Shown: piece by piece, positions 4,004 through 33,532 of the stretch | Position numbering within the stretch: the stretch's first letter is position 1 | How the letters are laid out: each line of letters begins with the position of its first letter | Source of the DNA: Patescibacteria group bacterium | GTDB lineage: Bacteria; Patescibacteriota; Patescibacteriia; UBA9934; GWF2-40-263 | DNA: 64,000 nt | Reading direction: 5' to 3' | Assembly (NCBI GenBank): GCA_004297215.1 | Contig: SCUM01000001.1 | Location: forward strand, 742,716-806,715 | Notes under the pieces: generated by a model | The model's database searches: none | What the model saw: the letters and a program-made list of their open reading frames with translations, nothing else | What the model was told of the DNA's origin: nothing | Made by a program: the position numbers and the translations under genes

Positions 4004-5116
4004 TTAGGATATCTCCGTTTCCCTGTCAATCTCGGGGGATGCAAGCGCCTTCCCCGTCTTCCCTGCGGCAATCTTGAAAATGTCCTTGTCGATTTTCTTC
4101 AGCTCGTTGCTCGACTCTGCATACGCGCGGGCGGTCGTCTCCAGATGCTTCCCGACCTTGCCGTGATACTCCTCGTACGCCTTGAGATGGCGATTGAGAT
4201 GTTCCGCCTGCACCTGGATCTCCTTCACCGAATCCTCGATCTGCAGCGCACGCAAGCCAAGCAGCACCGTCTGCAGGTAGGCGAAGAAGGAGGTGGGCGA
4301 CACGATCATCACCCCCTTCTCGAACGCGTACTCGATGAGATTGCGCGTGTTCACGTTCACGGCGCCGACGCTCGAGGTGATGAGATTGTGATAGACCCCT
4401 TCGGCCGGGACGAACATGAACGAAAAGTTCGTAGTTCCGCGCTCCGGACGGATGTATTTAGATGTCTCATCAATGCGCTTCTTGACGTCACTCTTGAATT
4501 CGCGCTCCAAGGCCTCTCGTCGGAGCGCATCTGTCTCAAGAGAAATTTTGTTGTAGTTCTCTAACGAAAATTTTGCGTCAATTGGTATCAACATTTCCTT
4601 CACGAAGATAACGGCATCTGGAATCAGTTTTGCATTCGTATCTTCGTCTACTCCCAGATCGTATTGCATTTGGTACTGGGTGGGTTGTAATACCTGTCCA
4701 AGAAGCGTTTCAAGCCAATATTCCCCAAGAATTCCTCGCTGCTTTGGATTCTTAAGAATATTTTCCAAGCTCTGTAGCTGTTTGGAGAAGTCCAGTACTT
4801 GCTTATTCGTTTCATCTAGCTTCGTGAGCTTTTCCGTTACATCCCGGACGATGCCAGAGGTATGAGCGGAATGCTTCTGGATCATCTGCATCGAATCATT
4901 CAGGCCTCGTGACATCCGGTCATCGATGCGATCCAGACGCCCCTGGAGTTCGGTTCTTCCCTTGGTTGATACCTCATCCATGTCCCGGCGGATGTCATTA
5001 AGCAGCTGGATCACTGACGAATCCAATGGGGCAGCTCCGACAGACCGCCTGGAATAGAAAAGAAAGGCGATAAGGCCGACAATCACGACAACCATGGCGA
5101 TTTCAATCGAATTCAT
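4004..5116 (-). CDS. rmuC: DNA recombination protein RmuC
   Basis: 370 aa. N-terminal TM helix plus coiled coil. C-terminal RmuC nuclease-like domain (FSFMFVPAEGVYHNLI...MIVSPTSFFAYLQTV). Confidence 0.85.
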   Translation of the reverse strand: MNSIEIAMVVVIVGLIAFLFYSRRSVGAAPLDSSVIQLLNDIRRDMDEVSTKGRTELQGRLDRIDDRMSRGLNDSMQMIQKHSAHTSGIVRDVTEKLTKLDETNKQVLDFSKQLQSLENILKNPKQRGILGEYWLETLLGQVLQPTQYQMQYDLGVDEDTNAKLIPDAVIFVKEMLIPIDAKFSLENYNKISLETDALRREALEREFKSDVKKRIDETSKYIRPERGTTNFSFMFVPAEGVYHNLITSSVGAVNVNTRNLIEYAFEKGVMIVSPTSFFAYLQTVLLGLRALQIEDSVKEIQVQAEHLNRHLKAYEEYHGKVGKHLETTARAYAESSNELKKIDKDIFKIAAGKTGKALASPEIDRETEIS

Positions 5117-5261: not shown

Positions 5262-5336
5262 GCCCTCATAGCTCAACGGATAGAGCAGATCCGTCCTAAG
5301 GATAAGATGGGGGTTCAATTCCCTCTGGGGGCACCA
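5262..5336 (+). tRNA. tRNA-Arg (anticodon CCU)
   Basis: Cloverleaf folds: acceptor GCCCTCA/TGGGGGC, T-loop GGTTCAATTCC, anticodon loop GTCCTAA, encoded 3' ACCA. Confidence 0.8.
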
Positions 5337-5437
5337 GCCTTCGCTCTTGATCGAGCCTAGGCAGACGCGCCAGCCACAGCTCGCTAGTGCGACATGTGGT
5401 AGCAGAGAATGTTTCACGTGGAACAAAATGGAAGTAT

Positions 5438-5513
5438 GGGCCGATAGCTCAGCTGGTAGAGCGCTGCATTCGCATTGCAGAGGTCTGGGGTTCGATTCCC
5501 CATCGGTCCACCA
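5438..5513 (+). tRNA. tRNA-Ala (anticodon CGC)
   Basis: 76 nt. Acceptor GGGCCGA/TCGGTCC with G3:U70, D-arm TAGCTCAGCTGGTAGAGC, anticodon loop TTCGCAT, T-loop GGTTCGATTCC, CCA encoded. Confidence 0.9.
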
Positions 5514-6077: not shown

Positions 6078-6983
6078 ATGCGTTACGCATCGGTCGCCGC
6101 GACAATTGTGGGGATGTTTATCTATGTGCCTTTTGCATTCGCGGAAATGTCCTCCGCGAATTTTGAGATCCGTTGGGATACGTTGAGTTCTGGTGGAGAC
6201 GATACGAGCTCGTCCGCATCGTATCTGCTTCGCGATACAGCGGGAGACGCGGGGATCGGAGATTCGACGAGCGCCAGTTACGAGCTTGCCGCCGGCTATC
6301 GCCAGGGCGTGAACGACCAGGTGATTACGTTCGAGGTGTTCGCCCAGGACAACGGCACGGAGCAGGCAGCCACGGCGCTCGTCTCGACGACCATCACCAC
6401 GAGCACGGCCGGATTGTCCATCGATGACTTCATCCTGCTCGTGCAGGACAAGGGCGCCTCGCAGGTTTCCGCCGTGGGCAGGATCGTTTCGATCGGCGCG
6501 GGAACCATCACGCTCGACGAACTCAAGGACGGCGGGACCGCGCCGACGATCGACGGGACGAACGACTTCGTCTACGCGCTCACGTCTTCGACCGCCGCAC
6601 TCGGTACGCTCGACGTCGCCGCGGTCAACACGTCGGTCGTCGCGTTCGACGTCACGGCCGAGGCGGATGCCGGATACACGGTGCAGATGATGGATGACGG
6701 CAACCTCCGCAACGGCGGCAACGACATCAACGACGTCGCGGACGGCACCGTGACCGCCGGCAGCGAGGAGTATGGCGGCCGTTCGTCCGATACGACGCTT
6801 GCGGGCTCCACGTTCGACACGGCTGACACGGCCGTAACGACGGGCTTCCAGGACGTTGCGGACCGCTCCGTCGCGTCGTTCTCTTCGCGCGATTTCGTGA
6901 CGCTCAAGGCATCGATGACCGGCGCGACCGAAAACCTCGCGTACGCGAACGTCACGAGCTTCGTGATTTCCGGGAACTACTGA
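6078..6983 (+). CDS. Secreted subunit-like protein (signal peptide, three SxNY-type repeats, C-terminal ...FVISGNY)
   Basis: 301 aa. Signal peptide MRYASVAATIVGMFIYVPFAFA. Paralog of 32767..33426 (shared DV(A/S)DG(T/A)VTAGSEEYG and terminal (I/V)(A/S)(T/S)GNY). Ser/Thr/Asp-rich. Confidence 0.75.
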   Translation: MRYASVAATIVGMFIYVPFAFAEMSSANFEIRWDTLSSGGDDTSSSASYLLRDTAGDAGIGDSTSASYELAAGYRQGVNDQVITFEVFAQDNGTEQAATALVSTTITTSTAGLSIDDFILLVQDKGASQVSAVGRIVSIGAGTITLDELKDGGTAPTIDGTNDFVYALTSSTAALGTLDVAAVNTSVVAFDVTAEADAGYTVQMMDDGNLRNGGNDINDVADGTVTAGSEEYGGRSSDTTLAGSTFDTADTAVTTGFQDVADRSVASFSSRDFVTLKASMTGATENLAYANVTSFVISGNY

Positions 6984-6984
6984 T

Positions 6985-7863
6985 ATGAAGCGTCTCGCCT
7001 CCGTCATCGCCATGCTCACGATGCTCACGCCGGTTGCCGCACGCGCTTTTTCCGTTTCTCCGGCGATCATCGACCTCTCCGCCACGCGCGGGACGGTCGC
7101 GTCGACGTCGATCACCATCACCAATGCCGACGCACGGGAGAAGACGTATTACCTGCAGGCGATCGCCTTCGAGCCGCGCGAGGACGCGGACGCGCCGCGT
7201 TTCCTCCCGCGCGAAGAGGGGACGGCGGGATTGTCGGAGTGGATTTCGATCGAGGACCGCGTGCGCGTGCCGGCGGGCGGGAAGCTCACGGTACCGGTAA
7301 AGGCGGCGGTGCCCATGGATGCGCTTCCCGGGACGCACTATGCCGCGATCACCGTGTCGGACGCGCCGTATGACGTGGTGGCTTCCCAAGGCGCCCCGAT
7401 CCAGGCGCGGGTGGCGGTCTTGCTGTTCCTGACGGTAGAAGGAGGGACGGCGAAGGCCGCGCTCCTGGATTTCCTGCCGGATCCCGCCGGAGCCATCCGG
7501 GAGAACACCTCGCACAGGTACGCCCTTCGCATCCAAAATCAGGGAGACGTGGTCGTGATCCCCGTCGGTACGGTAGAGACGAGGGACCTGTTCGGGCGAG
7601 TCGTCGCGTCGGCGCAGGTGAACGGGGAAGGGAAGCGCGTGGTCCCCGGATCGACGCGGACGTTCGAGGTGATCGTGCCGGAGAAGGGACTCGCCCTCGG
7701 CCCGGTGACGGCCACGCTCAAGCTGACCTACGCATCGGACCAGCCCGCCCTGTCTTCGTCCGACTCCTTCTGGGTATTCCCATGGCCGGTCGTCATCCTG
7801 TCGGCCTTCGTCGGCCTGATGGGTCTCATGATCCTGGTCGGCATCGTCCGACGACGCGCCTGA
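6985..7863 (+). CDS. Membrane-anchored PapD-like/DUF916-like beta-sandwich protein (candidate assembly chaperone)
   Basis: 292 aa. Signal peptide. N-terminus FSVSPAIIDLSATRGTVASTSITITNADAREKTYYLQAIAFEP resembles the pilus-chaperone N-domain motif. C-terminal FWVFPW followed by TM helix and RRRA tail. Paralog at 35280..36236. Confidence 0.75.
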   Translation: MKRLASVIAMLTMLTPVAARAFSVSPAIIDLSATRGTVASTSITITNADAREKTYYLQAIAFEPREDADAPRFLPREEGTAGLSEWISIEDRVRVPAGGKLTVPVKAAVPMDALPGTHYAAITVSDAPYDVVASQGAPIQARVAVLLFLTVEGGTAKAALLDFLPDPAGAIRENTSHRYALRIQNQGDVVVIPVGTVETRDLFGRVVASAQVNGEGKRVVPGSTRTFEVIVPEKGLALGPVTATLKLTYASDQPALSSSDSFWVFPWPVVILSAFVGLMGLMILVGIVRRRA

Positions 7864-7864
7864 T

Positions 7865-10800
7865 ATGCCCCATATAAGGAGGAACGTCCATCGTCTCATC
7901 GCCGCCGCGACCATCCTCGCGAGCGTCTTGCCGTTCCTCCCCGCGCGCGCGGCCACGGTCACCTCCGCGAGCGACGTCATGACCACCCTGGAGACGTCGG
8001 CCGCCGCGAACCACGTCATCGCCTTCGTCACCCCATCGGGCGTTTCGGAAGGGGACACGGTCACCATCGAGTTCGACGCGGATTTCGACACGTCGGGCCT
8101 TACCGAAGATGACGTGGACGTGGAGGACGACGGCGTCGACCTTACGACCGCCGCGGATTGCAGCGGCGCGGAACAGGCGTCGGTCATCCTTGCTGCCGAC
8201 ACGTTCACCATCACCATCTGTGCCGGAGACGGGGGCGCGATCGCCGCCACGAGCGAGGTGACGGTGGAAATCGGCACCAATGCCACCGCTTCGGGCACGG
8301 GCACCTCCCAAATCGACAACCCGTCCGCGGCGGGCACCTATTACGTGTCCGTGTCCGGCACGTTCGGCGACGCCGGCTCCATCGCCCTTCCCATCGGAGG
8401 GGATGACACGATCGGCGTGACGGCGACGGTCACCACCGGCGGCGCTGGAGGAGGTGGGCCGCCGGCCCCGCCCGCGGGCGACACCACGCCGCCCGTCATC
8501 AGCAACATCACCGTGAGTTCGATCACGGCCACCTCGGCAATCGTCACCTGGGACACGGATGAGGCCGCGGACAGTCGCGTGGATTTCGGGCCCACCGTCG
8601 CCTACGAGAACGGGAGCGTCACGAGCGGGACCCTCGTCACCAGCCACGCGCTTACCCTCACCGGGCTCACGGGAAGCACCGAATACCACTTCCGCGTGCG
8701 CTCGAAGGACGCGGCGCTGAACGAGCGGATCAGTTCCGACAACACCTTCATGACCACGGACGGCGTCGCGCCGCTCATCTCGGCGATCGTCGTGACGGAC
8801 ATCACGACGACCAGCGCGCGCGTGACCTGGACGACGGATGAGGCCGCCGACAGCGCGGTCGATTTCGGACCCACCGTCGCCTATGGGACGATCGTCACGG
8901 ACGGGAGCCTGGTCGTGAGCCATTCCGTGGTGCTGACCGGACTCACGGAGAACGCCCTCCATCACTTCCGCGTGCGCTCGAAGGACGCGGCGCTGAACGA
9001 AGCCGTGAGCGGCGACGGGACGTTTACGACGCTCGACGATCCCAACCCGGGCAACGTCACCGGACTGTCGGTGACGGCGGGGGACGCGCAAAACCAGCTT
9101 TCATGGACGAATCCCCCGGACGGCGACCTTTCGTCGATCCGCGTCATCGCGTGCACGAACGAAGCGCCGAGCAGCCCGACCGATCCGGATTGCACGGTCG
9201 TGTCCAGTTCGCTCGCTTCCTCTTTCACCCACACCGGCCTTTCCAACGGCACCACCTACTTCTACGGCGTCTTCGCCGTGGACGCCGTTGGGCAGTTCAG
9301 TTCTGGTACGCTCGGGCAGGGTACCCCGAGCGTGCCAGAAGAAGAGCTGCCGCCGGAGGAGCCTCCCCCGGAGCCTCCCCCGGAAGCGCCGCCGGAACCG
9401 CCCCCAGAGGCGGTTCCACCCCCAGCCCTCCCGTCCGGCCAGGCGGGAGGAGCGTGCGGGGACGGCATCTGTTCGGACCTGGAGTCCGGCGCATCTTGCG
9501 CCGTCGACTGCGGTCCGCTCCCGCCCGCGGCCGCGTGCGGGAACGCCGTGTGCGAAGCCGGCGAGGACAGCGCCTCGTGCGCACAGGACTGTCCTCCCGG
9601 CCTCGTGCCGGCCGATGTCCTGCGGCAAGACCTCACGTTCCTTGCGGGAGCCGCCGGGCTCGCGCTCCCCGTGTCCGACCGGGGATCGGTCGCGGTGCTT
9701 TCGCGCCGTGCGCTCGTCGCGCGGCTTTCCGCCATCCACCTTGATCGACCGGTGGATCGCGTCGAACTTGCCCTTGAGGGCGAGACCTACCTCATGGCCC
9801 CAACCTTCTCGGAAGAGGAGGGACAGGGGTTGCGCGCCGCCGCCGTGGGCGACGACGCGTACGAGACCACGATCACGACGCCGGAGACGTCGGGATCCCA
9901 TCCGTTAGCGGTGACCGTCCACTACGGGGACGGCACCGTGCAGGCCGTCGCCTTGCTCCTCGACGTAAAGGGCGACGGATATGCCTATGCGTCCGTCGAC
10001 GATGCCGAACAGCGCGTTTCAGGCGCCACCGCCACGCTTCACGAGGTCAACGGGGGAACGGCCGTATGGGACGGGTCACCCTACGGGCAATCCAATCCGT
10101 TGACGACGGGCGGCAACGGCGCGTTCGCCTGGTACGCGCCGAACGGGACGTACGCCGTGTCCGTTTCGGCCGCCGGGTATGCGCCCGCGCGGACCGCGAC
10201 GTTCTCGGTCACGGACCACATCATCAATCCTCGCGTGCGGCTCGCCCTCGAGGAGGAGCCGCCGCTGATCCCGCCCCCTTCGGCCCCCGTCGCGGCGATC
10301 CTGGACGCGGCCGCCGCCGTCAACGAGACGCTCGAGGCGGTACGCGACCTTCCCGCCGTGCAGACGGCCGCGGACATCTCGGTTCCCGCGCTTGCCGTGA
10401 CCGCCTCCCTCACGGGCGTCACGCTCGCGATCGGGTTCAATTTCGTTCCTTTGCTCCAATATCTCTTCACCGCGCCCGTCCTGCTCGTGGGACGGCGCAA
10501 GCGTCGCGCTTTCGGGATCGTCTACAATTCGATCTCGAAGCTGCCCGTGGACCTTGCCACCGTGCGATTGTTCCGCCTGCCGGATGAGCTTCCCGCCGAG
10601 GGGGTTCCGGAGACCGGGAGGCTGGTGCAATCCCGCGTGACGGACCGCGGCGGACGCTATTTCTTCCTTGCCAATCCCGGCCGCTACCGCCTGGCGGTGA
10701 CGAAGCAGGGATTCGATTTCCCGACGGGCTACCTCTCATCCTCGCGGGAAGACCATGACTTCCTCGACCTCTATCACGGCGAGCCCATCGTCGTCTCCGA

Positions 10801-11329
10801 GGCCGGGGCCGTCATCGCGGCCAACGTCCCGCTCGACCCGTCGCAGGCCGCCGCGTTCCACGCTCCGGCCGCCATCGTCCTCAAGGCGCGCCTGCGGACG
10901 ATCCAACACGTCGTTTCCATCTCCGGCATCATCGCCTCGGTCGCGTTCGCGGTGATCAGGCCGGGCGCCCTGACGGTCGGGATGGTGCTCGTGCAGGCGC
11001 TCGTCTACCTTGCCGTGCGCCGCCTCGCGCGCGCGGCCAAGCCCAAGAGCTGGGGGATCGTGTACGACCAGGGGACGGACAAGCCGCTTGGCCGCGTCAT
11101 CGCGCGCGTGTTCGAGCCGCGGTACAATAAGCTCCTTGAGACGGCCGTCACCGACGGCAACGGCCGCTACAACTTCGTGCTCGGGCCCAACGAGTATTAC
11201 GTGGTGTTCGAGCATGAAGGCTACGACAACGTCGAGATACGCCCGGTGGATTTCACCGGACGCAAAGAGGCATCGGACTGGGGCGTCCAGGTCCGCCTGC
11301 CGCCAAAGCTCCTTCCCGCATCCGCGTGA
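7865..11329 (+). CDS. Large multidomain surface protein (subunit-like N-domain, 3x FN3, Cys-rich modules, TM helices alternating with carboxypeptidase-regulatory-like domains)
   Basis: 1154 aa. N-terminal 190 aa homologous to the 34101 protein (ATxTSAxDxM, NHxIxFxTPxGV, ADCS, IGTNAT, SGTFGDxGxIAL). FN3-like repeats with TEYHFRVRSKDAALNE. Pro/Glu-rich linker. Two CG(D/N)GxC...C..DC modules. TM + GRRKRR + CarbopepD_reg-like (TDRGGRYFF..PGRYRL) + TM + second CarbopepD_reg-like (TDGNGRYNF). Confidence 0.8.
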   Translation: MPHIRRNVHRLIAAATILASVLPFLPARAATVTSASDVMTTLETSAAANHVIAFVTPSGVSEGDTVTIEFDADFDTSGLTEDDVDVEDDGVDLTTAADCSGAEQASVILAADTFTITICAGDGGAIAATSEVTVEIGTNATASGTGTSQIDNPSAAGTYYVSVSGTFGDAGSIALPIGGDDTIGVTATVTTGGAGGGGPPAPPAGDTTPPVISNITVSSITATSAIVTWDTDEAADSRVDFGPTVAYENGSVTSGTLVTSHALTLTGLTGSTEYHFRVRSKDAALNERISSDNTFMTTDGVAPLISAIVVTDITTTSARVTWTTDEAADSAVDFGPTVAYGTIVTDGSLVVSHSVVLTGLTENALHHFRVRSKDAALNEAVSGDGTFTTLDDPNPGNVTGLSVTAGDAQNQLSWTNPPDGDLSSIRVIACTNEAPSSPTDPDCTVVSSSLASSFTHTGLSNGTTYFYGVFAVDAVGQFSSGTLGQGTPSVPEEELPPEEPPPEPPPEAPPEPPPEAVPPPALPSGQAGGACGDGICSDLESGASCAVDCGPLPPAAACGNAVCEAGEDSASCAQDCPPGLVPADVLRQDLTFLAGAAGLALPVSDRGSVAVLSRRALVARLSAIHLDRPVDRVELALEGETYLMAPTFSEEEGQGLRAAAVGDDAYETTITTPETSGSHPLAVTVHYGDGTVQAVALLLDVKGDGYAYASVDDAEQRVSGATATLHEVNGGTAVWDGSPYGQSNPLTTGGNGAFAWYAPNGTYAVSVSAAGYAPARTATFSVTDHIINPRVRLALEEEPPLIPPPSAPVAAILDAAAAVNETLEAVRDLPAVQTAADISVPALAVTASLTGVTLAIGFNFVPLLQYLFTAPVLLVGRRKRRAFGIVYNSISKLPVDLATVRLFRLPDELPAEGVPETGRLVQSRVTDRGGRYFFLANPGRYRLAVTKQGFDFPTGYLSSSREDHDFLDLYHGEPIVVSEAGAVIAANVPLDPSQAAAFHAPAAIVLKARLRTIQHVVSISGIIASVAFAVIRPGALTVGMVLVQALVYLAVRRLARAAKPKSWGIVYDQGTDKPLGRVIARVFEPRYNKLLETAVTDGNGRYNFVLGPNEYYVVFEHEGYDNVEIRPVDFTGRKEASDWGVQVRLPPKLLPASA

Positions 11330-11488: not shown

Positions 11489-14400
11489 ATGCTCAAGCGG
11501 TTCAAGGACAACCCGGATCACTTTTTCAGGAGGCTGTTCGCCTTCACGGCCTTGGGTCTGGTGATGGCCGGAGCGGTGTCGTACATGCTTACGGACAGTT
11601 ACCTGTCCGTCTTCGCCGTCTCTCCTCCCAACATCATCCCGTACCAAGGCCGCCTGCTCAACGCCAACGGAGTGCCCGACGCTTCCGCTTCCCGCGACTT
11701 CCAGTTCCGTTTGTACGACTCCCTAGCCGCCGGCACGTGCCTGTGGAGCAACGACGACAGCTCCTGCGCCTCCGACGCCGATTTGGCCGTGACCCTCACC
11801 GACGGGTTGTTCTCCGAGAACCTCGGCGACACCGGGGCCGGATACGCCGCCATTCCGGATTCCGTGTTCGCGGATGATGCCTCCGTGTTCCTCGAGGTGG
11901 AGGTGGAAGGGGAGGTGCTTTCCCCGAGGAAGCAGATCGGAGCCGCGGCGTATGCGTTCAATGCCGACACGCTCGACGGGATGGATTCGGCGAGTTTCGC
12001 CCTCGTGGACGACGCGTTCGTGCAGGACGGCAACAGCTTCGGGGCAACGGCCGTCATCGGCACCAACGACACCGAGGATTTCGCGATCGAGACGGACGGG
12101 ACCACGCGCATGACGGTCCTTTCAAGCGGTGAGGTCGGAATCGGCACGGCCACCCCGCTCGACACCGTCAGCATCCTCGGGACGTCGGGTTCGACCGGCA
12201 TCGGCATCGATGACAGCACCGCGGGAGGGAACACCTATCTCATCCTCAACCACATCAGCGCGTCGGATTCGAGCGAGGAGATCCTCATGAACGGCGACGG
12301 AACGATCGGACTCAACATCACCAACCAGAACTCCGGCACGCTGGGCACCGACCTCACCGACATCCCTTCGAGCGCCAACTTCTACACCAACTCCGGGAAT
12401 GCCGGCGGGCTCATCCTCGCTTCCCAGCACGCCACGGCCCCGATGATCTTCGCCACCGGCGGCATCGCCACGGGCGACGAGCGCATGCGCATCGACTCCG
12501 CCGGAAACGTCGGGATCGGCACGACGACCCCCGGCGAGACGCTGGAAGTATCCGGCACCTCGTACGTCTCCGGCCACGCCGCGATCGGCGCGGACGCGGC
12601 CGTGGACGACGGGAGCCTCCTCTATCCCGGCTCGATCTTCTCCAACACGCTCAACGTGTCCGAGCGGAGCACGGACGCGAGCGTGGACTACGTCGAGGGC
12701 ACCACCAACTACCTCCTGTACGACCCGTCGGCGGACGCCTCGGGCATCTGGGCGATCGCCCTTGATTCCGAGGCGGCCACCGAGGCGACGAACGCCGAGG
12801 ATGTCGGCACCCTGTCCGCCGGGTATTTCAACGCGACCCACAACGGGACCGGCGACATCACGAGCTGGATGTCCGGCATCGAGGCGTACGCCTTCACCAC
12901 CGCGACCGGCGGAAGCTCGGTCGAGAGCATTGCCGGATACTTCTCGCTTAGCCTGTCGGATCCCCGTTCCTCAGGCACCGAGAACAACTACGGCGTGTGG
13001 TCGGCCGTGAGCCGCACCGGCGCCACCGGCGGCACCATCAACACCTACGGCGTGTACGTGGATGACACGGGCGTGGGCAACGCGGGAGCGGGCACTTCCA
13101 CCGCCTACGGCCTGTACCTCGAGGATTTTCCGACCGCCGACGCCCAATATTCCATCTACTCCGAGGGCGGCCAAAGCTACCACGCTGGCAACTTCGGGAT
13201 CGGGGCGACCACGCCCGACGCCGACCTCGACATCGAGGCCGCCGAGGACACGGAGCGCGTGAGGCTCACGGACACGAGCAACGCGGACTCGGTCGGTCTC
13301 TATGTCGGCGACGGCACGGCAGGGCTCGACGGGACCCTCTCGGCCCAGGCGGGGAGCCTGTTCCTCGACGAGGACGGGAAGCTGTGGGTGAACATGGACG
13401 GGGCGACCAACTGGGACCAGGTGGCGACCACGGCCGGAGGCGCCCTGGACCTCGACGGGGCGTACGACAACGATTCAGACAAGAAGATGGCCGTGGACAA
13501 CGCCTCGGGCCTCGAGTTCGAGAGCTCCACGGCCGGCAACGTGTTCGTGGACCTGCAAAGCACCGGCGACTTCGTGATCCAGTCGGTTGGCACCGCCTTC
13601 GCCACCTTCAACGACTCGGGGAACGTCCTTTTCGAGAACTCGCTCACGGTCGGTTCCAGCTCCGCCGACGTCGTCCTGTTCAACGCCGACGTGGACAGCC
13701 ACTTCATCCCCGACGACGACGACACCTACGACCTGGGCGCCGACGCCCAGCGCTGGAGGGACCTCTACCTTGGGGCCGCGACCCTCCACGTCGGTTCCCT
13801 TATCGGGGACGAGGGAACCATCTCCTATGACACCGGGGCGAACGCGCTCGTCGTGAACGAGGGTGGGGCCGACACCGACTTCCGCATCGAAGGCGACACG
13901 GAGGCGAACCTCCTCTTCCTCGACGCCGGCAACGGCCGCGTGGGGATTGGTACGGCTAGCCCGACCGCGCGCGTACACGCGACCCAATCGACGGACGGCG
14001 GCGGAGGATACGTCTTCGAGAATTCGAACGCGGGAGCGTCCGCCTTTTCCGAGGTTTCCGTCGTGTCCGATGGCGCGACGGGTTCGTGGAGGTCGTTCGG
14101 CACAGGAAATACGAACCTCGGCTTTGATTCCATTTCATTAGCCGATTCCGTGGCCATCGGCGCGAATACGGATGCGACCCGCATGTTCGTGGCCACCTTC
14201 GGCACCGCACCGCTCCTCATCGGCACCAATCTCAACACGAGCGGGACGCCACCGGGGATATTCATCGACACGTCCAACAACGTTGGGATCTTCGACGAGA
14301 CCCCGTCCGCCAAACTCGACGTAGGAGGGACCTTTGCCGTGCAAGGGAATTCGACCCTCGGCAACGCCTCGGGCGACACAGTCACCTCAAACGCCGCCGC

Positions 14401-17400
14401 CTGGACGTTCGCGAATGACACCACTGTCGCGCTTTCGGGCGGCGTGAACGGCCTCAACTTCGACTCGAACACCCTTTCCATCGACGCCGCCAACAACCGC
14501 ATCGGCATCGGCACCTCGACGCCATCGCACCTCGTGGACATCAGCGCCGGCACCTCCACCGGCTTCTGGCCGCTGCACATCGCCGCGACGGTCACGGACG
14601 GGTTCGCGGGGCTGCGCGCCGACATCACGAGTTCGGACACGATCGGGAACAACCAGCTGGCCGGCCAGTTCGTCCTCGCCGCCGGCGCCACCGGGGCAGG
14701 GTATTACACGGCCCTGGACGTGGAGAACCTGGCGGCCGGCACCGGGAGCGACCTCAAGCTCGATACGTCGTCGAACGCCTCCCTCGGCAACACCGGCCTC
14801 AGCAGCCTCGCCATCGCGACCACCACGGGCCTCAACGTCGGCTCTTACATGGAGGCCGCCAACGGCGCGACGAGCGTGGGCGGGGTGGGGAAGTCCATCA
14901 CGGCCAAGGCCTCGGGGACCAACATCGGCGTCCTGGGCGTGGGCCGCAACACGAGCGTGACGTCCCCCATCGAGATCGGCGGGTACTTCGGCCTGTTCAA
15001 CTCCACCCCCACCTTCGACGCCTCCTCCGGCCTCATCGCGAGCAACGGGTCGACCACCAACAACATCTTCCTCGCCCGCGACAACAACACGACGGTGTTT
15101 TCCATCGTGGACGGGGGGAGCGTGGGCATCGGCGACGCCACCCCCGACGCCCTGCTCGACGTGGCCGGCAGTTTCCAGTTCGACGGCGACGCGACCTTTG
15201 GCGACGCGGCCACGGACAACGTGGTGTTCACGGCCGACGTGAACAGCAACATCCTCCCCAACACCGATGACACGTACACGCTCGGCGACGCGGACCAGCG
15301 CTGGGCGGATATCTTCCTCGGCCCGGCCTCCATCCATATCGGCACCTCGGCCACGAACGAGGGCGTGATCAGCTACGCGGCCGGAACCTCGCTCGATTTC
15401 GGCACGGATTCGACCACGAACGCCGACATCGCCTTTTTCACCGACGACCTCTACCTCGACAAGTCCACGGGGCGCGTGGGTGTCGGCACCGCGGCGCCCG
15501 GTTACCTCCTCGACGTGAACGGCGCCATCCGCGCCGGCACGCCGGGCACGGATGGCCAGATGCGCGTCTACTCCGAGCAGGGAGCCACCGACTACGAGGT
15601 CGTGTTCGATCCCAACGCTGCGATGACCCAGAACGTGACGTATACCCTCCCAGCCAATGACGGCGACTCCGGCCAGTTCCTCACGAGCGACGGCGCAGGC
15701 GCGCTTTCCTGGACCACCTCGGCCGGCTCCGGCGACATCACGGCCGTCGGTTCAATGACGAGCGGCGACGCGTTCGCGGATTCCTCGGCCGATGACGACT
15801 GGCTCGGTCTCGGCGTGGCCGCCGGACGCATCGAGTTCGACGACCTCGCCACCGACGAGGTGAACGTCCTTGGGGCGCGCGTCGGCGTCGGCACCTCCGC
15901 GCCGGACGCGTTGGTTGACGTGGAAGGGAGCGTGAACGGCGAGGTCGCCACTTATGCCACGAATACGAACGCGGGCACGGCGGCCTTCGCCGCCGTCAGC
16001 CTCGTGAACGACCAAGGCAATTCGTTCCGATCCTCGGTGTACATGACCAGCAGCACGTACGTGGGTTCCGGTGAAGGCGCGAACGCGCTCGTGTTGCAAA
16101 ACGGCGTGACCACGGGGCCGATCCGCTTCATGCAAGGGACCACTTCCCGCATGCTCATCGACGGCTCCGGCGACCTCTCCTGGAGCGGGAACGCGACCTT
16201 CGGCGATACCTCGGGGGACGCGATTACCGTGAATGCCGCCACTTGGACGTTCGCGAACGACACCGCGGTGGCGCTCTCGGGCGGCGAGAACGGCCTCAAT
16301 TTCGACAGCAACACCCTTTCCATCGACGCGACGAACGACCGCGTGGGCATCGGGACCGCGTCCCCGGCCGCGATGTTCCATGCGACCCGGTCGGCTCCGG
16401 CCGCCGGCGCCGAGGCCTGGGCCGAAAACACGAGCGCGACCGGCTATGCCGCCATGCTCATCGTGAATGACGCCGGGTCCGGGAGCCGCAGCGGGTTGCA
16501 ATTCGCGGGTTCGGGCTATGCCGACACCATCGTCGGGAACAACGACCTCGCCCTCACGCAGGCCACGGCCAACGACCTCCATTTCGCCACCAGCAACACG
16601 CGGCGCGTGACGCTCGACGCGTCCGGGAACCTGGGGATCGGCGACGCCACCCCCGACTACCTCCTCGACGTGGCCGGCACTCTCGGCGTGGACGGCAGCG
16701 TCACCCTCGGCGACGCGGTCACCGACAACCTCACCGTGGGCGCGGCCATCCAAGGGACGAGCGCGCTCGTGTTCGACGGCTCCACGGATGACGCTAACGA
16801 GACCACCTTCTCCATCACCAACCCCACGGCTGACAATACGATTACCTTCCAAAACGGCACGGGCACCGTGGCGTTCCTTTCTGACATCCCGGCTTCCGGC
16901 GACATCACGGCCGTCGGCTCCATGACCTCGGGCGACGCCTTCGCCGACGCCACGGCCGACGACGACTGGCTGGGCCTCGGCGCCGCGGCCGGCCGCATCG
17001 AGTTCGATGACCAGGCGACCGACGAGGTGAACATCCTATCGTCCCTCGTCGGCATCGGGACCTCGACCCCGTCGGCCATGCTTTCCGTGGGCGCCAGCTC
17101 GCAATTCCAGGTGGATAGCTCTGGAAACATCACGACCTCCGGCACTTTGGCGGTGAACGGCGGGATCATCACGGCGACCGGTTCGCTCGATATCAACTCC
17201 CTTACGACGACCGCGCTTACGCTCGACTCGGGCACGACCGGCGACGTGAATCTCGGGACAGGCGCAAACGCGAAGGCGGTCTTCGTGGGCAACAGCACCG
17301 GTGCGACGAACCTTACGTTCAATGTCGGCACCGGCGGCATCAACTTCGGCGACAACGCGAATACGAAGACGATCGACATCGGCGGGGTCACCAGCAGCGG

Positions 17401-19933
17401 CACGGACACGATCAATCTCGCGACGAACGGGACCGCCGCGGACGTCATCGCGGTCGGCAACAGCAACGCCTCCACCACGCTTGCGCTTACGGGCGGCAAC
17501 GACTGGAGCATCAGCACGGCCGGCCTCATCACTACCGCGGGCGACGTGGCGGTGAACGGCGGGGACATCACCTCCACTGGCGCGATCACCATCACCCCGG
17601 CCTCGGGATCCAACGTTGACGTGGGACTTGCGAGCACCGGTGACTTTAACGTGAATGTCAGTGGAAGCCCGGTGTTCGTCGTCTCCGAAACGGGAGTCGT
17701 CGTCGCAGACTCGAACATTTTCGTCGGCAATGCGAGTTCGTCCAACGACGATTTCCTCTATTTCGACGGCGGGACGACCGAGTCCATCCGTTGGGATGAA
17801 ACAGGGAGCGAATTCGAGGTTTCCGACGACTGGAATATCTTGGGCAACTGCCTTGAGACGGGCGTGGCCTGCGACCTGGCGGAGACGTTCTTCGCGGATG
17901 CCGGGGAGGCGCTTGAGGCGTACGACGTGGTGGTGAGCGATGCCTCTGGAACGAAGAAGGTGAAGAAGTCGTCGATGGCGTATGATTCCGGGCTCATGGG
18001 CGCGGTGTCGCTGCAGCCGGCGATCCTCATGGAAGGCAGCTACGTGGTGGTGGGCAACGACGATGCCGTGGTGGATCCGGAGCGTCCGGCCGTGGTGCTC
18101 TCCGGCGTGGTGCGCGTGAAGGTGAGCGAGGAGAACGGGGTGCCGGCCATCGGCGACATGCTCGCCACCTCAACGGTCGCGGGGCACGCCATGAAGGCCT
18201 CGCAGCCGGGCATGGCGCTTGGCCGCATGGTGGGCGGGTATACCGCGGTCAGTCCCGGCATTGCCACGGCGCTCGTGGACGTGAAGGTGGGCTGGCACTC
18301 CGGCGGCGTGATCGCCACCGACGGCACCATGGCCACGATCAATGACGATGTCGCGTTCACGGCCACTGGCACCGCCGATGGCATTACCCAAGGTTTCGAC
18401 TCCTTCGGCCTCTCCCTTCGCGGCTCGGGCTGGGACGGCGCTGCCGCCCAGGAGCGCGCCATGAAGCTCGTGACCGACGTGACGGACGCCTCCACCTACA
18501 AGCTGTCCATCCGCAACCAGTCCGACGCCGAGGTCGCCTACATCACCGACGACGGGGTGATGAGCGTGGCTTCCGACCTGGTGGTGGGAGGAAAGCTGTA
18601 CCCCTCGGCCCTGGGAGTCGCCCAGACGGACAAGTACGTCTATTACGGAGGCTCCGGCGACGACTACATGCGCACCAACGCCTCGGGCTGGGGGACCGGT
18701 AGCTACGACTTTGCGGAAATGTTCCCCTCAAGCCTGCCTCTCGAACCTGGTGAGGTGGTGGCGTTCGATACGGTTTCCGAACAGGTGAAACGCGCCTCGG
18801 GCGAGGACCGCGCGCGCCTCGCGGGCATCGTGTCCACCAAGCCCGGGTTCGTGGCCGGCAACGTGAAGGCGGGCGACCACCCGATCGCGCTCGCGGGCCG
18901 GGTGCCCACCAAGGTGTCCCTCGAGAACGGCGACATCGCCGTGGGCGACGCGCTTACCGTATCCGAAACGCAGCCAGGCTACGCCATGAAAGCCACCGAG
19001 GCCGGCATGATCATCGGCTACGCGCTTGAACCGTTTGATGGCAGTGGGTCGGTTGATGGCAGTGGGCAGTTGGCAGTTGGCAGTGGGGAAGCGATCATCG
19101 TGTTCGTTCATCTTGGCTACTGGACCGACGGAAGTCAGCCCATGGCCGGCACGGACAACGCGGCGTCCGGCTCGGGCACCGGGAGCCTGTCGGCGCTCAA
19201 CATGACCGGCAACATCTACATGCAGGGGAACCAGATCCTGAACGTCGGCGCGATTGCCGGATTGGGCGGCATCTGGAGCGTGGACGGGGAAGGGACGTTC
19301 CGCACGGAGGCGACCTACAAGACGGTCATCACCAGCTACCAGAACGAGCAGGTGGAAACGATCGCCGTCACGAGTCCGGACGTGCAGATTACGCTTCTCG
19401 GGACCGCGGAACTCGTGAACGGGGAAGCGACCGTCTCGTTCGAGTCCGTCAATCCGTCGTTCAACGACGTCACGTCCACCACGGCCCCGGTGCGCGTGCT
19501 CGTGACACCCAACGGCCCGGTGTCGCTCTATATCGTGAGCAAGGACCACAACGGGTTCACGGTCCGTCAGGTCGGCCCTTCGACAAGCTCAGGGTCTTCG
19601 ACGGATTCGAACGTGACGTTCGACTGGATGGTGAGCGCGTTCAGGAAGGATTATGAAGTGGTTGAGTCGTTGAGTGGTGGAGTGGTTGAGGAAACGGCTC
19701 CAGCCGAGGAGACGGCTCCTTCGACGGAACCGACTGTCGAAAACCCGGCCTCGACGGACACGACGGCCACGGAACCAGCTCCGTCAGAACCCGTCCCAGA
19801 ATCGCTTCCCTCTGAACCTGTCCCAGAGTCCGCTCCCTCGGAAGAACTTCCCCCTGCCGATCCAGCTCCAGCTCCTGAAGAGCCGGCTCCTCCTGCGGAG
19901 GAACCCCCGGCTCCCACGGAACCGGCGCCTTGA
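11489..19933 (+). CDS. Giant surface protein 1 (N-terminal signal anchor, conserved head domain, GIGT-type repeats, two copies of a conserved C-terminal module, Pro/Glu-rich tail)
   Basis: 2814 aa. TM anchor FAFTALGLVMAGAVSYML. Head IIPYQGRLLNANGVPD..FRLYDS..CLWSN..LSPRKQIGAAAYA. Many xVGIGTxxP repeats. C-terminal modules with DxAExF..STKPGF..ALAGRVPTKVSLENGDIAVGD..PGYAMKA..GYALEP. PE-rich end. Confidence 0.85.
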   Translation: MLKRFKDNPDHFFRRLFAFTALGLVMAGAVSYMLTDSYLSVFAVSPPNIIPYQGRLLNANGVPDASASRDFQFRLYDSLAAGTCLWSNDDSSCASDADLAVTLTDGLFSENLGDTGAGYAAIPDSVFADDASVFLEVEVEGEVLSPRKQIGAAAYAFNADTLDGMDSASFALVDDAFVQDGNSFGATAVIGTNDTEDFAIETDGTTRMTVLSSGEVGIGTATPLDTVSILGTSGSTGIGIDDSTAGGNTYLILNHISASDSSEEILMNGDGTIGLNITNQNSGTLGTDLTDIPSSANFYTNSGNAGGLILASQHATAPMIFATGGIATGDERMRIDSAGNVGIGTTTPGETLEVSGTSYVSGHAAIGADAAVDDGSLLYPGSIFSNTLNVSERSTDASVDYVEGTTNYLLYDPSADASGIWAIALDSEAATEATNAEDVGTLSAGYFNATHNGTGDITSWMSGIEAYAFTTATGGSSVESIAGYFSLSLSDPRSSGTENNYGVWSAVSRTGATGGTINTYGVYVDDTGVGNAGAGTSTAYGLYLEDFPTADAQYSIYSEGGQSYHAGNFGIGATTPDADLDIEAAEDTERVRLTDTSNADSVGLYVGDGTAGLDGTLSAQAGSLFLDEDGKLWVNMDGATNWDQVATTAGGALDLDGAYDNDSDKKMAVDNASGLEFESSTAGNVFVDLQSTGDFVIQSVGTAFATFNDSGNVLFENSLTVGSSSADVVLFNADVDSHFIPDDDDTYDLGADAQRWRDLYLGAATLHVGSLIGDEGTISYDTGANALVVNEGGADTDFRIEGDTEANLLFLDAGNGRVGIGTASPTARVHATQSTDGGGGYVFENSNAGASAFSEVSVVSDGATGSWRSFGTGNTNLGFDSISLADSVAIGANTDATRMFVATFGTAPLLIGTNLNTSGTPPGIFIDTSNNVGIFDETPSAKLDVGGTFAVQGNSTLGNASGDTVTSNAAAWTFANDTTVALSGGVNGLNFDSNTLSIDAANNRIGIGTSTPSHLVDISAGTSTGFWPLHIAATVTDGFAGLRADITSSDTIGNNQLAGQFVLAAGATGAGYYTALDVENLAAGTGSDLKLDTSSNASLGNTGLSSLAIATTTGLNVGSYMEAANGATSVGGVGKSITAKASGTNIGVLGVGRNTSVTSPIEIGGYFGLFNSTPTFDASSGLIASNGSTTNNIFLARDNNTTVFSIVDGGSVGIGDATPDALLDVAGSFQFDGDATFGDAATDNVVFTADVNSNILPNTDDTYTLGDADQRWADIFLGPASIHIGTSATNEGVISYAAGTSLDFGTDSTTNADIAFFTDDLYLDKSTGRVGVGTAAPGYLLDVNGAIRAGTPGTDGQMRVYSEQGATDYEVVFDPNAAMTQNVTYTLPANDGDSGQFLTSDGAGALSWTTSAGSGDITAVGSMTSGDAFADSSADDDWLGLGVAAGRIEFDDLATDEVNVLGARVGVGTSAPDALVDVEGSVNGEVATYATNTNAGTAAFAAVSLVNDQGNSFRSSVYMTSSTYVGSGEGANALVLQNGVTTGPIRFMQGTTSRMLIDGSGDLSWSGNATFGDTSGDAITVNAATWTFANDTAVALSGGENGLNFDSNTLSIDATNDRVGIGTASPAAMFHATRSAPAAGAEAWAENTSATGYAAMLIVNDAGSGSRSGLQFAGSGYADTIVGNNDLALTQATANDLHFATSNTRRVTLDASGNLGIGDATPDYLLDVAGTLGVDGSVTLGDAVTDNLTVGAAIQGTSALVFDGSTDDANETTFSITNPTADNTITFQNGTGTVAFLSDIPASGDITAVGSMTSGDAFADATADDDWLGLGAAAGRIEFDDQATDEVNILSSLVGIGTSTPSAMLSVGASSQFQVDSSGNITTSGTLAVNGGIITATGSLDINSLTTTALTLDSGTTGDVNLGTGANAKAVFVGNSTGATNLTFNVGTGGINFGDNANTKTIDIGGVTSSGTDTINLATNGTAADVIAVGNSNASTTLALTGGNDWSISTAGLITTAGDVAVNGGDITSTGAITITPASGSNVDVGLASTGDFNVNVSGSPVFVVSETGVVVADSNIFVGNASSSNDDFLYFDGGTTESIRWDETGSEFEVSDDWNILGNCLETGVACDLAETFFADAGEALEAYDVVVSDASGTKKVKKSSMAYDSGLMGAVSLQPAILMEGSYVVVGNDDAVVDPERPAVVLSGVVRVKVSEENGVPAIGDMLATSTVAGHAMKASQPGMALGRMVGGYTAVSPGIATALVDVKVGWHSGGVIATDGTMATINDDVAFTATGTADGITQGFDSFGLSLRGSGWDGAAAQERAMKLVTDVTDASTYKLSIRNQSDAEVAYITDDGVMSVASDLVVGGKLYPSALGVAQTDKYVYYGGSGDDYMRTNASGWGTGSYDFAEMFPSSLPLEPGEVVAFDTVSEQVKRASGEDRARLAGIVSTKPGFVAGNVKAGDHPIALAGRVPTKVSLENGDIAVGDALTVSETQPGYAMKATEAGMIIGYALEPFDGSGSVDGSGQLAVGSGEAIIVFVHLGYWTDGSQPMAGTDNAASGSGTGSLSALNMTGNIYMQGNQILNVGAIAGLGGIWSVDGEGTFRTEATYKTVITSYQNEQVETIAVTSPDVQITLLGTAELVNGEATVSFESVNPSFNDVTSTTAPVRVLVTPNGPVSLYIVSKDHNGFTVRQVGPSTSSGSSTDSNVTFDWMVSAFRKDYEVVESLSGGVVEETAPAEETAPSTEPTVENPASTDTTATEPAPSEPVPESLPSEPVPESAPSEELPPADPAPAPEEPAPPAEEPPAPTEPAP

Positions 19934-32727: not shown

Positions 32728-32756
32728 TTGACTGCCCATTCCAAAAAACGTAAAAT
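32728..32756 (+). promoter_or_regulatory. Consensus sigma70 promoter of surface locus 2 (near-leaderless)
   Basis: TTGACT, 17-nt spacer, TAAAAT. ATG at 32767 only about 4-6 nt after the predicted TSS. Shares AAAATGCTTTGAC with the promoter at 6030. Confidence 0.7.
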
Positions 32757-32766
32757 AGCTAAGAAT

Positions 32767-33426
32767 ATGGTCCGAGCCTTCATTTTTGCCGTAGGCGCTT
32801 GTGTTGGAACCCTGTTGCCCGGGATGGTTCTGGCCCAGTCCACCTCCACCAATTACATCCTGTGGGACACCGCGATCAATGCGGGAGGCGGAAGGACTAC
32901 GTCCACGAATTACATCAATTTCAACACGGTGGTGGACGTGGGGAGCGACCGTCTTTCCAGCACCAACTATCGCGCCTACCAGGGGTTCGAAGCGATCACC
33001 GAGGACCCGCGCATCACCATGAGCCTTACCCCCACAACCATCACCCTCTCGCCCAATCCGCTCACCACCGCGTCGGTGAGCACGGGCACCACCACGGCCA
33101 CCGTGAGCACGAACGCGGACTTCGGCTACACGCTCACGGCCACGGAGAACGACGCGTTCAAAAATCAAAGCGCCGATGAGCTCGCGGACGTCTCCGATGG
33201 CGCCGTCACTGCCGGGAGCGAGGAGTACGGCATCGCGGTGAGCGGTTCCGACGCCGCGTTCGGCGACGACCGCAGCGTTTCCGCGACCCCGCGCACGATC
33301 GCGAGCAAAAGCACCTGGGGAGCCGACCGCGCCACCGTCGTCACCGTGAAGGCCGCGATCGCGAGCGTCACGGACTCGGGGGAGTACTCGGGCACGCTCA
33401 CGTTCATCGCCACGGGGAATTATTGA
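32767..33426 (+). CDS. Secreted subunit-like protein (paralog of 6078), C-terminal ...TFIATGNY
   Basis: Start MVRAFIFAVGACVGTLLPGMVLAQS (signal peptide). The ORF-track start at 32728 lies upstream of the promoter. Three S-T-N-Y repeats, DVSDGAVTAGSEEYG, terminal TLTFIATGNY. Confidence 0.75.
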   Translation: MVRAFIFAVGACVGTLLPGMVLAQSTSTNYILWDTAINAGGGRTTSTNYINFNTVVDVGSDRLSSTNYRAYQGFEAITEDPRITMSLTPTTITLSPNPLTTASVSTGTTTATVSTNADFGYTLTATENDAFKNQSADELADVSDGAVTAGSEEYGIAVSGSDAAFGDDRSVSATPRTIASKSTWGADRATVVTVKAAIASVTDSGEYSGTLTFIATGNY

Positions 33427-33428
33427 AT

Positions 33429-33517
33429 AGTGCGTAGTGCGTAGTTGGTAGTACGTAGGAAAGAAAATCTACGCACTACGAACTACGTACTACGAACTAC
33501 GTACTACGCACTACGCA
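33429..33517. repeat. Hairpin built from ACTACGY heptamer arrays (left flank of the four-helix-bundle gene)
   Basis: AGTGCGTAGTGCGTAGTTGGTAGTACGTAGG..loop..CTACGCACTACGAACTACGTACTACGAACTACGTACTACGCACTACGCA. Confidence 0.8.
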
Positions 33518-33532
33518 AACATATGAACAACG

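Follow-up and report, generated by a model that had tools for sequence, protein, structure and literature searches.

Two membrane-tethered, PapD-like proteins of the PamC/PamD type in paralogous pilin-type cassettes of a CPR bacterium

Bacteria of the candidate phyla radiation (CPR), which may account for a large part of bacterial diversity, live attached to host cells, and the way in which they assemble their surface appendages is only beginning to emerge. The stretch of DNA analysed here (the window; 64 kb, 64.7% G+C) comes from an Uhrbacteria-like member of this group and encodes two proteins that raise the question of how pilus-type subunits might be handled on a single membrane. An earlier note on this DNA had proposed that both carry a pilus-chaperone (PapD-like) N-terminal domain and are held at the outer face of the membrane by a C-terminal transmembrane (TM) helix. 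Below we ask to which family these proteins belong, which partners are encoded beside them, and whether a tethered chaperone is the best description of them. We favor the reading, with a probability of roughly 0.7, that the products of both genes are Sec-exported, PapD-like proteins of two domains that belong to the PamC/PamD family, are tethered through their C-terminal TM helix to the outer face of the cytoplasmic membrane, and would act as strand-donating chaperones.

Two paralogous loci and their tethered proteins

The two genes belong to two loci of the window that are paralogous to each other (Table 1). In locus 1, the gene for a 301-aa PamT-like protein is followed by the chaperone-like gene, a gene for a 1154-aa membrane protein, and the genes of two giant proteins (2814 and 2482 aa). 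The order in locus 2 is a 232-aa PamT-like protein, an inserted gene, a 385-aa pilin, the chaperone-like protein and a giant protein of 4299 aa; the inserted gene encodes a four-helix-bundle protein (23S rRNA IVS protein). The chaperone-like protein of locus 1 (292 aa) is identical to NCBI EPO34_03850 from a Patescibacteria group bacterium and is a paralog of its counterpart in locus 2 (318 aa), with 32% identity from end to end (BLASTP, E = 4e-34). The coordinates and peptides given in the earlier note were correct for both reading frames, FSVSPAIIDLSATRGTVASTSITITNADAREKTYYLQAIAFEP being residues 22–64 of the 292-aa protein and LTVSPVVIEHEADPGDEIVGTIKLHNEGAQTETYYPTVQDF residues 27–67 of the 318-aa protein.

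Table 1. Coordinates of the genes of the two loci and of the segments of the 292-aa protein, numbered from the first position of the window.
Feature	Residues	Position	Strand	Length	Remarks
PamT-like subunit, locus 1		6078–6983	+	301 aa	
Chaperone-like protein, locus 1		6985–7863	+	292 aa	
Signal peptide (292-aa protein)	1–21	6985–7047			precedes 7048
Domain 1 (292-aa protein)	22–151	7048–7437			includes hairpin of F-strand, loop and G-like strand at 116–151
Domain 2 (292-aa protein)	158–264	7456–7776			
FWVFPW motif (292-aa protein)	262–267	7768–7785			
TM helix (292-aa protein)	268–287	7786–7845			followed by RRRA tail
Membrane protein, locus 1		7865–11329	+	1154 aa	
Giant protein, locus 1		11489–19933	+	2814 aa	N-terminal TM anchor
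Second giant paralog, locus 1		20107–27555	+	2482 aa	
PamT-like subunit, locus 2		32728–33426	+	232 aa	length of the ORF
Two-domain pilin, locus 2		34101–35258	+	385 aa	
Paralog of chaperone-like protein, locus 2		35280–36236	+	318 aa	architecture as in the 292-aa protein
Third giant paralog, locus 2		36342–49241	+	4299 aa	directly 3' of the locus 2 chaperone gene

By sequence inspection and hydropathy, both proteins begin with a signal peptide, which ends at ARA/FS in the 292-aa protein and at AAA/LT in the 318-aa protein. The FWV(F/M)PW motif, TM helix and basic tail that the note had read at their C-termini are present in both: the 19-residue segments of highest hydrophobicity are 269–287 and 283–301 (Kyte-Doolittle hydropathy of 2.7 and 3.1, respectively), and they are followed by the tails RRRA and KKR. 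This arrangement is general in the family, with a C-terminal TM segment in 155 of 164 sequences and a basic tail in 159 of 164.

A word-indexed search retrieved only 18 relatives, all of them from CPR. An exhaustive search with a profile built from these 18 homologs gave 15,744 cluster representatives (E ≤ 1e-3), of which 9,002 remained at E ≤ 1e-10 and 2,008 at E ≤ 1e-30. The matches have their length in common, as well as the motif at the N-terminus, the FW.PW motif, and the TM helix with its basic tail.

The N-terminal consensus of the family reads (L/F)(T/S)VSPxx(I/L)(E/D)L...PG. Among 142 family members, the motif residues P26 (137 of 141), G36 (134), N47 (all 142) and F62 (139) are the most constant, followed by T54 (99), Y56 (94) and Y55 (86). 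In the same 142 sequences, the aromatic motif before the TM helix, whose conservation the note had suggested checking, is kept at F262 in 116, W263 in 105, P266 in 137 and W267 in 122. The TYY and FW.PW positions are therefore occupied by majority residues, and both the N-terminal and the FW.PW motif are signatures of the family rather than chance resemblances. In 142 of the best family matches, N47, W86, G153, N185, G187 and G239 are invariant, and P26, G36, F62, P110, G116, L146, P193, R225 and P266 are conserved in at least 90%.

Two further conserved features bear on a possible chaperone function. One is a hairpin in domain 1, the first strand of which (residues 116–125, with the pattern [HY][YF]AA[IV]x[VFW]S at 118–125) leads into a variable loop of low pLDDT and then into a second strand of the pattern V137-x-I139-x-A-K/R142-x-G-x-L146-h-h-h-x-V151-x-G153, in which the basic residue 142, found in 73% of the members, stands just before the conserved hydrophobic strand of the domain. 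The other is a pair of arginines in domain 2, R225 (99% of the members) and R182 (82%).

Predicted fold and pilin-type partners

The AlphaFold2 (AF2) model of the 292-aa protein, built from the 18-sequence alignment (pLDDT 87.1, pTM 0.72), consists of the signal helix, two beta-sandwiches (about residues 22–151 and 158–264) and a helix at 267–291, with low confidence in the loop at 133–138. When the PDB was searched with Foldseek, WxLIP from Enterococcus faecium ranked at the top (9i25_C, 3.5e-12; 9i1y), followed by the chaperones CfaA, CsuC, CupB2 and FaeE; RbmA and ASH/PapD-like ciliary proteins were also found. The fold matches to chaperones comprised EcpB (12.1, 163 residues aligned), CfaA (11.9), CupB2 (11.8), YadV (11.5), CsuC (11.4), FimC (11.1), SafB (11.1) and PapD (9.9), and the chaperone-usher chaperones aligned across both domains, over 146–164 residues. 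The model has the two-domain, Ig-like fold of PapD/FimC-like chaperones. However, the Pfam families PapD_N (PF00345) and PapD_C (PF02753) had no match at E ≤ 1 in the two window proteins or at E ≤ 0.01 in 142 relatives. The PapD-like character claimed in the earlier note thus holds for the predicted fold (EcpB, CfaA and others) and is not detectable in the sequence.

In PapD-like chaperones, the invariant cleft residues Arg8 and Lys112 bind the C-terminus of the subunit. The position of PapD Arg8 is taken by a conserved Ser-Pro in the family studied here.

The PamT-like neighbors are pilin-type proteins. The 301-aa protein begins with a signal peptide and, besides SxN[YF] repeats and an inserted domain, contains a C-terminal domain of the pilin type, in which the motif DG.V.AGSEEYG occurs and which ends in ...ISGNY. 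With NCBIfam (release 20) it matched PamT (3e-15) and Pam_pilin_C (2.7e-4), both below the cut-off, and with our own PamT-like HMM it matched at 2.6e-56. The 232-aa protein, which is 88% identical to a protein from Candidatus Uhrbacteria RIFCSPHIGHO2_01_FULL_63_20 and ends in ...TLTFIATGNY, likewise matched PamT (7e-14) and Pam_pilin_C (2e-7) below the cut-off; homologs suggest that its real start lies near Met14, giving about 219 aa. These pilin-like neighbors score 52–56 bits against a PamT cut-off of 240, and 31–32 of 35 homologs match these two NCBIfam models, PamT and Pam_pilin_C, as well. AF2 modelled the C-terminal domain of the 232-aa protein (residues 96–230) with a pLDDT above 90, and its best fold matches are CfaB, CsuA/B, FimF/G, the pilin domain of PapG, Caf1 and PapH (E from 1.5e-3 to 0.2). 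The pilus classes agree on the two sides: those of the pilins that best match the PamT-like model are also those of the chaperones that best match the chaperone-like model (CfaA and CsuC).

In the 385-aa protein of locus 2, an N-domain is joined by a linker or donor strand (about DTVAISATVTSALTF) to a C-domain whose last residues are ...TLTFIATGTF. The protein is 30–35% identical over its full length to pilins of 349–377 aa from other CPR loci, which sit between PamT-like and chaperone genes. The subunits share an aromatic C-terminus, TGN[YF] or TGTF here and TATF in the canonical operons discussed below. A sequence search of a PDB set that evidently lacks the PamA/PamB entries 25PZ and 25QA gave no useful match for the 385-aa and 232-aa proteins.

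In locus 1, residues 1–183 of the 1154-aa protein are homologous to the N-domain and linker strand of this pilin (39% identity). They are followed by a Gly/Pro linker, three fn3 domains, Cys-rich and Pro-rich segments and CarboxypepD_reg domains, with TM segments near residues 840–860 and 1013–1054; an acceptor C-domain is absent. The 1154-aa protein is therefore a candidate for a stalk or anchor bearing a donor strand, which would be analogous to PamR in function and is not a member of its sequence family. The three giant proteins are paralogs of one another, the 2482-aa and 2814-aa proteins being 74% identical at the N-terminus and 50% at the C-terminus. The 2814-aa protein looks like a fibre or tail-fibre protein and has a weak Bdello_MAT_N match.

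The arrangement of locus 1 recurs elsewhere. In all six of six diverse loci, the order is a PamT-like gene, the chaperone gene, a gene for an fn3/CarboxypepD_reg membrane protein of about 1.0–1.16 kaa directly downstream of it, and, as the fourth gene, a giant protein. An RmuC gene often lies upstream of these cassettes, as it does in the window.

Linkage was also followed from the side of the pilins, by scanning GTDB with the pilin motif alone (D-G-x-V-x-A-G-x-E-E-[YF]-G), which gave at least 120 blocks of 8 kb. Among the matches listed, our HMMs found a PamT-like ORF in 92 blocks and a chaperone ORF in 81 of these 92, directly downstream and on the same strand in 77; 10 of the 11 blocks without a chaperone ORF were truncated by the block edge. 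The linkage of the chaperone to pilin-type genes is thus near-obligate, and the genes are adjacent. The lineages represented include Uhr-, Magasanik-, Falkow-, Komeili-, Morani-, Nomura-, Parcu- and Peregrinibacteria, WWE3, Dojkabacteria and Saccharimonadales. Blocks from Streptomyces, Acidobacteria and similar sources had no HMM match and were dismissed as chance matches to the pattern.

Membership in the Pam system and proposed assembly

The filaments of the Pam pilus of Candidatus Mycosynbacter amalyticus have been solved (Troman et al., bioRxiv 10.64898/2026.03.03.709456). Its pilins, PamA and PamB, consist of an N-domain, a linker donor strand and a truncated Ig C-domain, and the same work defined the tip protein PamT, PamE, the RbmA-like anchor PamR, and PamC/PamD, which are PapD/FimC-like with a C-terminal TM helix (10.64898/2026.03.03.709456). 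In AlphaFold complexes, strands of these chaperones enter the C-domain of the pilin, and PamC/PamD were proposed to drive donor-strand exchange without a trans-envelope machine; Pam pilins were found mainly in Saccharimonadia and Microgenomatia, and ATP synthase genes were described alongside pam operons (10.64898/2026.03.03.709456).

Since no NCBIfam model matches the chaperone family, its membership was established through canonical pam operons. Two of these from Saccharimonadia (L129 and L130, the latter from Saccharimonadales) were reached via homologs of the protein of L083, a Saccharimonadales member of the family. They encode PamT (285.5 and 247.7 bits, respectively; cut-off 240), three to four pilins (Pam_pilin_C, 117–162 bits; cut-off 55) and PamR (346 bits in L129 and, below the cut-off of 300, 213.8 bits in L130), and ATP synthase genes adjoin them, as the preprint describes. 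Between the pilins and PamR, each operon has a gene for a TM-anchored protein that matches the profile of the window family (18-sequence HMM, 2e-61 and 1.4e-53). In BLASTP comparisons over the full length, the canonical-operon chaperone is 31% identical to the 292-aa protein (E = 6e-27) and that of L129 is 33% identical to the 318-aa protein (E = 4e-40), the alignment taking in the FWVIP(Y/W) motif and the TM helix. Therefore, the window proteins belong to the PamC/PamD-type membrane-anchored chaperones, a kind already described in the 2026 preprint. PamC (WP_260763277.1) and PamD (WP_260763284.1) of M. amalyticus themselves were compared by description, the sequence link running through the genes of L129 and L130.

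The suggestion of the earlier note that a tethered chaperone would suit a monoderm cell is borne out, in that the same role has been proposed for PamC/PamD and the canonical pam operons hold full-length homologs; the chaperone activity of the window proteins is what we infer from them. New here are the size of the family, which is very large and reaches Uhrbacteria, Magasanikbacteria and other CPR lineages, and a cassette variant, that of locus 1, without a polymerising pilin. The tethered Pam chaperone is thus not confined to a few Saccharimonadia, being a core part of pilin-type cassettes in many lineages of CPR.

Taken together, we hypothesize that the tethered chaperone, with its basic tail in the cytoplasm, captures newly exported subunits whose Ig-like C-terminal domain is incomplete, namely the PamT-like proteins encoded at 6078 and 32728 and the two-domain pilin encoded at 34101. 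The chaperone would lend a beta-strand of the conserved domain 1 hairpin and so complete the fold of the subunit, the C-terminal aromatic carboxylate of which (...TG[NT][YF]) might be held by R225 and R182 as candidate anchors. The donor (linker) strand of whichever subunit comes next would then take the place of the lent strand. For locus 2, this subunit could be the 385-aa pilin, which may be able to polymerise; for locus 1, the 1154-aa protein, which, having a donor strand and no acceptor domain, would cap and anchor the assembly. Because locus 1 combines an acceptor (the 301-aa protein) with a donor-only, membrane-anchored protein (1154 aa), it may make a capped two-part stalk. An usher would be dispensable since there is no outer membrane, and no usher-like gene was found in the cassettes of the window and six related loci.

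Relation to WxLIP and other known systems

The earlier note had likened the topology to that of the DUF916/DUF3324 proteins of WxL loci. The membrane tether supports this comparison, and for the first domain the family profiles do so more clearly than the window proteins themselves. Against PF06030 (DUF916/WxLIP_PGBD), the two window proteins score below the gathering score (E = 0.058 and 0.17); PF06030 matches occur in 47 of 142 relatives, with a best value of 2.9e-7, and one member, L083 from Saccharimonadales, exceeds the gathering score (28.6 vs. 27.3 bits). EfmWxLIP1 was matched by the 18-sequence profile at 4e-4 and, over domain 1, by the 142-sequence profile at 4.7e-6, and some family members are already named 'DUF916 domain-containing protein' in NCBI and UniRef. 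By contrast, no resemblance to DUF3324 was detected in the second domain: PF11797 (DUF3324/WxLIP_HBD) had no match in the two proteins (E ≤ 1) or in 142 relatives (E ≤ 0.01). The WxLIP motif NQIDKxxxYFDLK is absent from the window family. We conclude that the window proteins are distantly related to WxLIP of Gram-positive bacteria. The Pam preprint makes no mention of WxL or DUF916 (10.64898/2026.03.03.709456), and no paper found in the literature that we searched links the PamC/PamD type to WxLIP, so that this connection by sequence and structure is new.

WxLIP is characteristically encoded together with two or more WxL-domain proteins; the partners here gave no sign of a WxL domain. No Pfam match to it was found in the neighbor proteins of the window, no WxL chain in the PDB was matched by the PamT-like profile, and the WxL chains of 9i25 were not among the best 50 fold matches of the PamT-like model. 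The possibility that the C-terminal domain of the pilins (...TLTFIATGNY, GYTL) might itself be a WxL domain was also considered and found to be unsupported, since it had no match in Pfam or by PDB profile and its best 50 folds are chaperone-usher pilins.

WxLIP has been proposed to display WxL proteins on the Firmicute membrane surface and is predicted to insert a strand of a beta-hairpin into its WxL partner; it was described as a stable binder and anchor of WxL proteins and not as a transient chaperone (Hassan et al. 2023, PMC10599100). The window proteins might, by analogy, be permanent anchors or adaptors that bind a subunit stably, whether through strand insertion or in another way, and display it without handing it on. 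WxLIP is their best match in the PDB in both sequence and structure, WxLIP and WxL form a stable complex in 9i25, the PamT-like partner lacks a membrane anchor, and cassettes of the locus 1 type do without a polymerising pilin. However, the cassette always includes a gene whose product has the N-domain and linker strand of a pilin, and such a product would have no purpose if the chaperone kept the groove of the subunit. Homologs of the window proteins are encoded in operons that build real PamA/PamB filaments, in which no chaperone density was reported (10.64898/2026.03.03.709456), and no WxL or DUF3324 domain was found in the window proteins and relatives searched. On balance, we regard permanent anchoring as unlikely.

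Much less probable still is that these are generic Ig-like surface proteins, such as adhesins or envelope spacers, which resemble chaperones only through a common beta-sandwich fold. The fold searches did return unrelated Ig-like proteins (transglutaminase, GH123, C5a peptidase and RbmA), and weak Pfam and NCBIfam matches to fn3_5, FixG_C and choice-of-anchor-D could be read in the same way. Yet a common fold of this kind would hardly explain why chaperone-usher chaperones align over both domains of the model, why the genes are nearly always adjacent to pilin-type genes, why the hairpin and the arginines are so strongly conserved, or why a homologous chaperone gene stands in canonical pam operons. 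A tethered, strand-donating chaperone thus seems to us the best description of both proteins.

A broader scheme can be offered tentatively, although we are inclined to doubt it as a whole. The PamC/PamD-type proteins of CPR might, with the Firmicute WxLIP (DUF916) proteins, make up a single ancient and very large family, whose members would be membrane-tethered chaperones that donate strands and need no usher, and WxL display in lactobacilli, enterococci and Listeria might then be a chaperone-subunit system related to the Pam pili of CPR and, more distantly, to chaperone-usher pili. The locus 1 cassette, which is common in Uhrbacteria-like CPR, might build a minimal two-part surface organelle, in which a PamT-like tip is complemented by the donor strand of a membrane-anchored stalk of 1.1 kaa, beside a giant fibre protein, rather than a polymeric pilus. 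How WxLIP works in Gram-positive commensals and pathogens remains a matter of debate; should the link hold, findings on each system could inform studies of the other, and usher-free donor-strand assembly on a single membrane would be widespread.

Of the systems with which the window proteins can be compared, the chaperone-usher chaperones (PapD, FimC, CfaA, CsuC, EcpB and Caf1M) differ in being soluble rather than TM-tethered, and they work with an usher and an outer membrane, neither of which applies to the window proteins, in which the Arg8 equivalent is not conserved. The hairpin of the window family nevertheless recalls their F1-G1 hairpin, its basic residue and conserved hydrophobic strand recall Lys112 and the G1 donor strand, and the partners resemble the pilins of these systems, with an incomplete Ig domain and a conserved C-terminal aromatic residue.

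The WxLIP proteins of Firmicutes (DUF916, DUF3324 and TM helix; PDB 9i1y and 9i25) have the topology of the window proteins (signal peptide, a pair of Ig-like domains and a TM helix at the C-terminus), and the domain 1 hairpin of the window family recalls the one predicted to enter WxL. Their partners are WxL-domain proteins, whereas those of the window proteins are pilin-type subunits, and they reside under a thick Firmicute wall, whereas the window proteins belong to the CPR envelope.

With PamC/PamD, the window proteins share the signal peptide, two PapD/FimC-like beta-sandwiches and C-terminal TM helix, as well as adjoining genes for PamT-type proteins and for pilins built of N-domain, linker and C-domain. 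Compared with the Pam system as described, however, the organism is Uhrbacteria-like and lies outside the Saccharimonadia and Microgenomatia emphasised in the preprint, the pilins are distant relatives of the NCBIfam Pam models, and one type of cassette has no polymerising pilin. PamR (NF058578) had no match in the window proteins searched, and the 1154-aa multi-domain membrane protein, with its pilin N-domain and linker, stands in the place of PamR, while giant fibre-like proteins are fixed members of the cassette in the window type.

Terminal repeats and possibly fused modules in the cassette proteins

The PamT-like proteins open with three conserved, strand-like S-(S/T)-x-N-[YF] repeats (e.g., STNYILWD, STNYINFN, and SSTNYRAYQGFE), which in the NCBIfam PamT model align with its N-terminal portion. 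These repeats were predicted with low confidence (AF2, pLDDT about 45–50), and could act as self-complementing or partner-binding strands. In the 1154-aa membrane protein, two short modules rich in Cys (GACGDGICSDLESGASCAVDCG and AACGNAVCEAGEDSASCAQDCP) come after a Pro/Glu-rich spacer (PEEELPPEEPPPEPPPEAPPEPPPE).

In a few related loci (L025, L111, and L116), a far longer ORF of 830–992 aa has the chaperone-family match at its beginning, suggesting either that the chaperone-like module is fused to further domains, or that stop codons or frameshifts were missed.

Features of the two loci, their flanks and related loci (window positions, except for L-numbered loci)
Feature	Position	Strand	Remarks
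RmuC-family gene	4004-5116	-	upstream of locus 1
tRNA-Arg/tRNA-Ala genes	5262-5513	+	just upstream of locus 1
PamT-like repeats, locus 1	6078-6983		residues 24-75
Spacer and Cys-rich modules, 1154-aa protein	7865-11329		residues about 495-590
Giant, 2814 aa	11489-19933	+
Giant, 2482 aa	20107-27555	+
PamT-like repeats, locus 2	32728-33426		residues 37-90
Four-helix-bundle "23S rRNA-intervening sequence protein" gene	33445-33888	+	PF05635, 1.4e-39; TIGR02436
Giant, 4299 aa	36342-49241	+	repeat array at roughly residues 2870-3700
Three secreted or membrane proteins	49243-53437	+	221, 857, 316 aa
Long ORF, L025	600-3089		chaperone-family match
Long ORF, L111	2-2977		chaperone-family match
Long ORF, L116	2238-4934		chaperone-family match

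Genomic neighbourhood

A short way ahead of locus 1 are tRNA-Arg/tRNA-Ala genes and an RmuC-family gene. Of six related loci, four (L003, L005, L006, and L008) have RmuC at the corresponding upstream site, suggesting that this chromosomal neighbourhood is conserved. In locus 2, the PF05635 gene separates the PamT-like gene from the pilin gene, and it looks like an insertion, because in other loci the two genes lie side by side at this spot, or a pilin gene comes immediately next. Downstream of the 4299-aa gene, three closely packed genes encode proteins that might be the source of the anchor function of locus 2; among these, the 857-aa protein has a transmembrane segment (residues 55–73) and a weak fn3-like match, while the 316-aa protein has two transmembrane segments and a CarboxypepD_reg domain.

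The CPR-type cassette of PamT-like and chaperone genes was also found, with strong HMM scores, in many GTDB records that bear the title "MAG TPA_asm: uncultured Gammaproteobacteria bacterium" (among the matches listed, L010, L012–L014, L017, L019, L021, L024, and at least about 35 more). Those titles probably misname the organisms, which are likely Patescibacteria.

Giant proteins

All three giant paralogs carry an N-terminal transmembrane anchor and share N- and C-terminal regions (74% and 50–56% identity, respectively). A weak match to the N-domain of the Bdellovibrio mosaic adhesive trimer fibre was also obtained. The array in the 4299-aa giant comprises about twenty tandem, Cys-containing modules of roughly 40 aa each, of the form ...YYD.(T/S)NGDLKV(L/V)KCGN(A/S)ACSSGNTTTT(V/L)DS.G.VG.Y(T/S)SIA.... 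In cassettes elsewhere, the conserved fourth gene likewise encodes a giant protein, with Peptidase_G2 or LVIVD matches. A "tail fibre-like protein" has been linked to pam operons (Pam preprint, bioRxiv 10.64898/2026.03.03.709456), and the giant protein of the cassette may be its counterpart.
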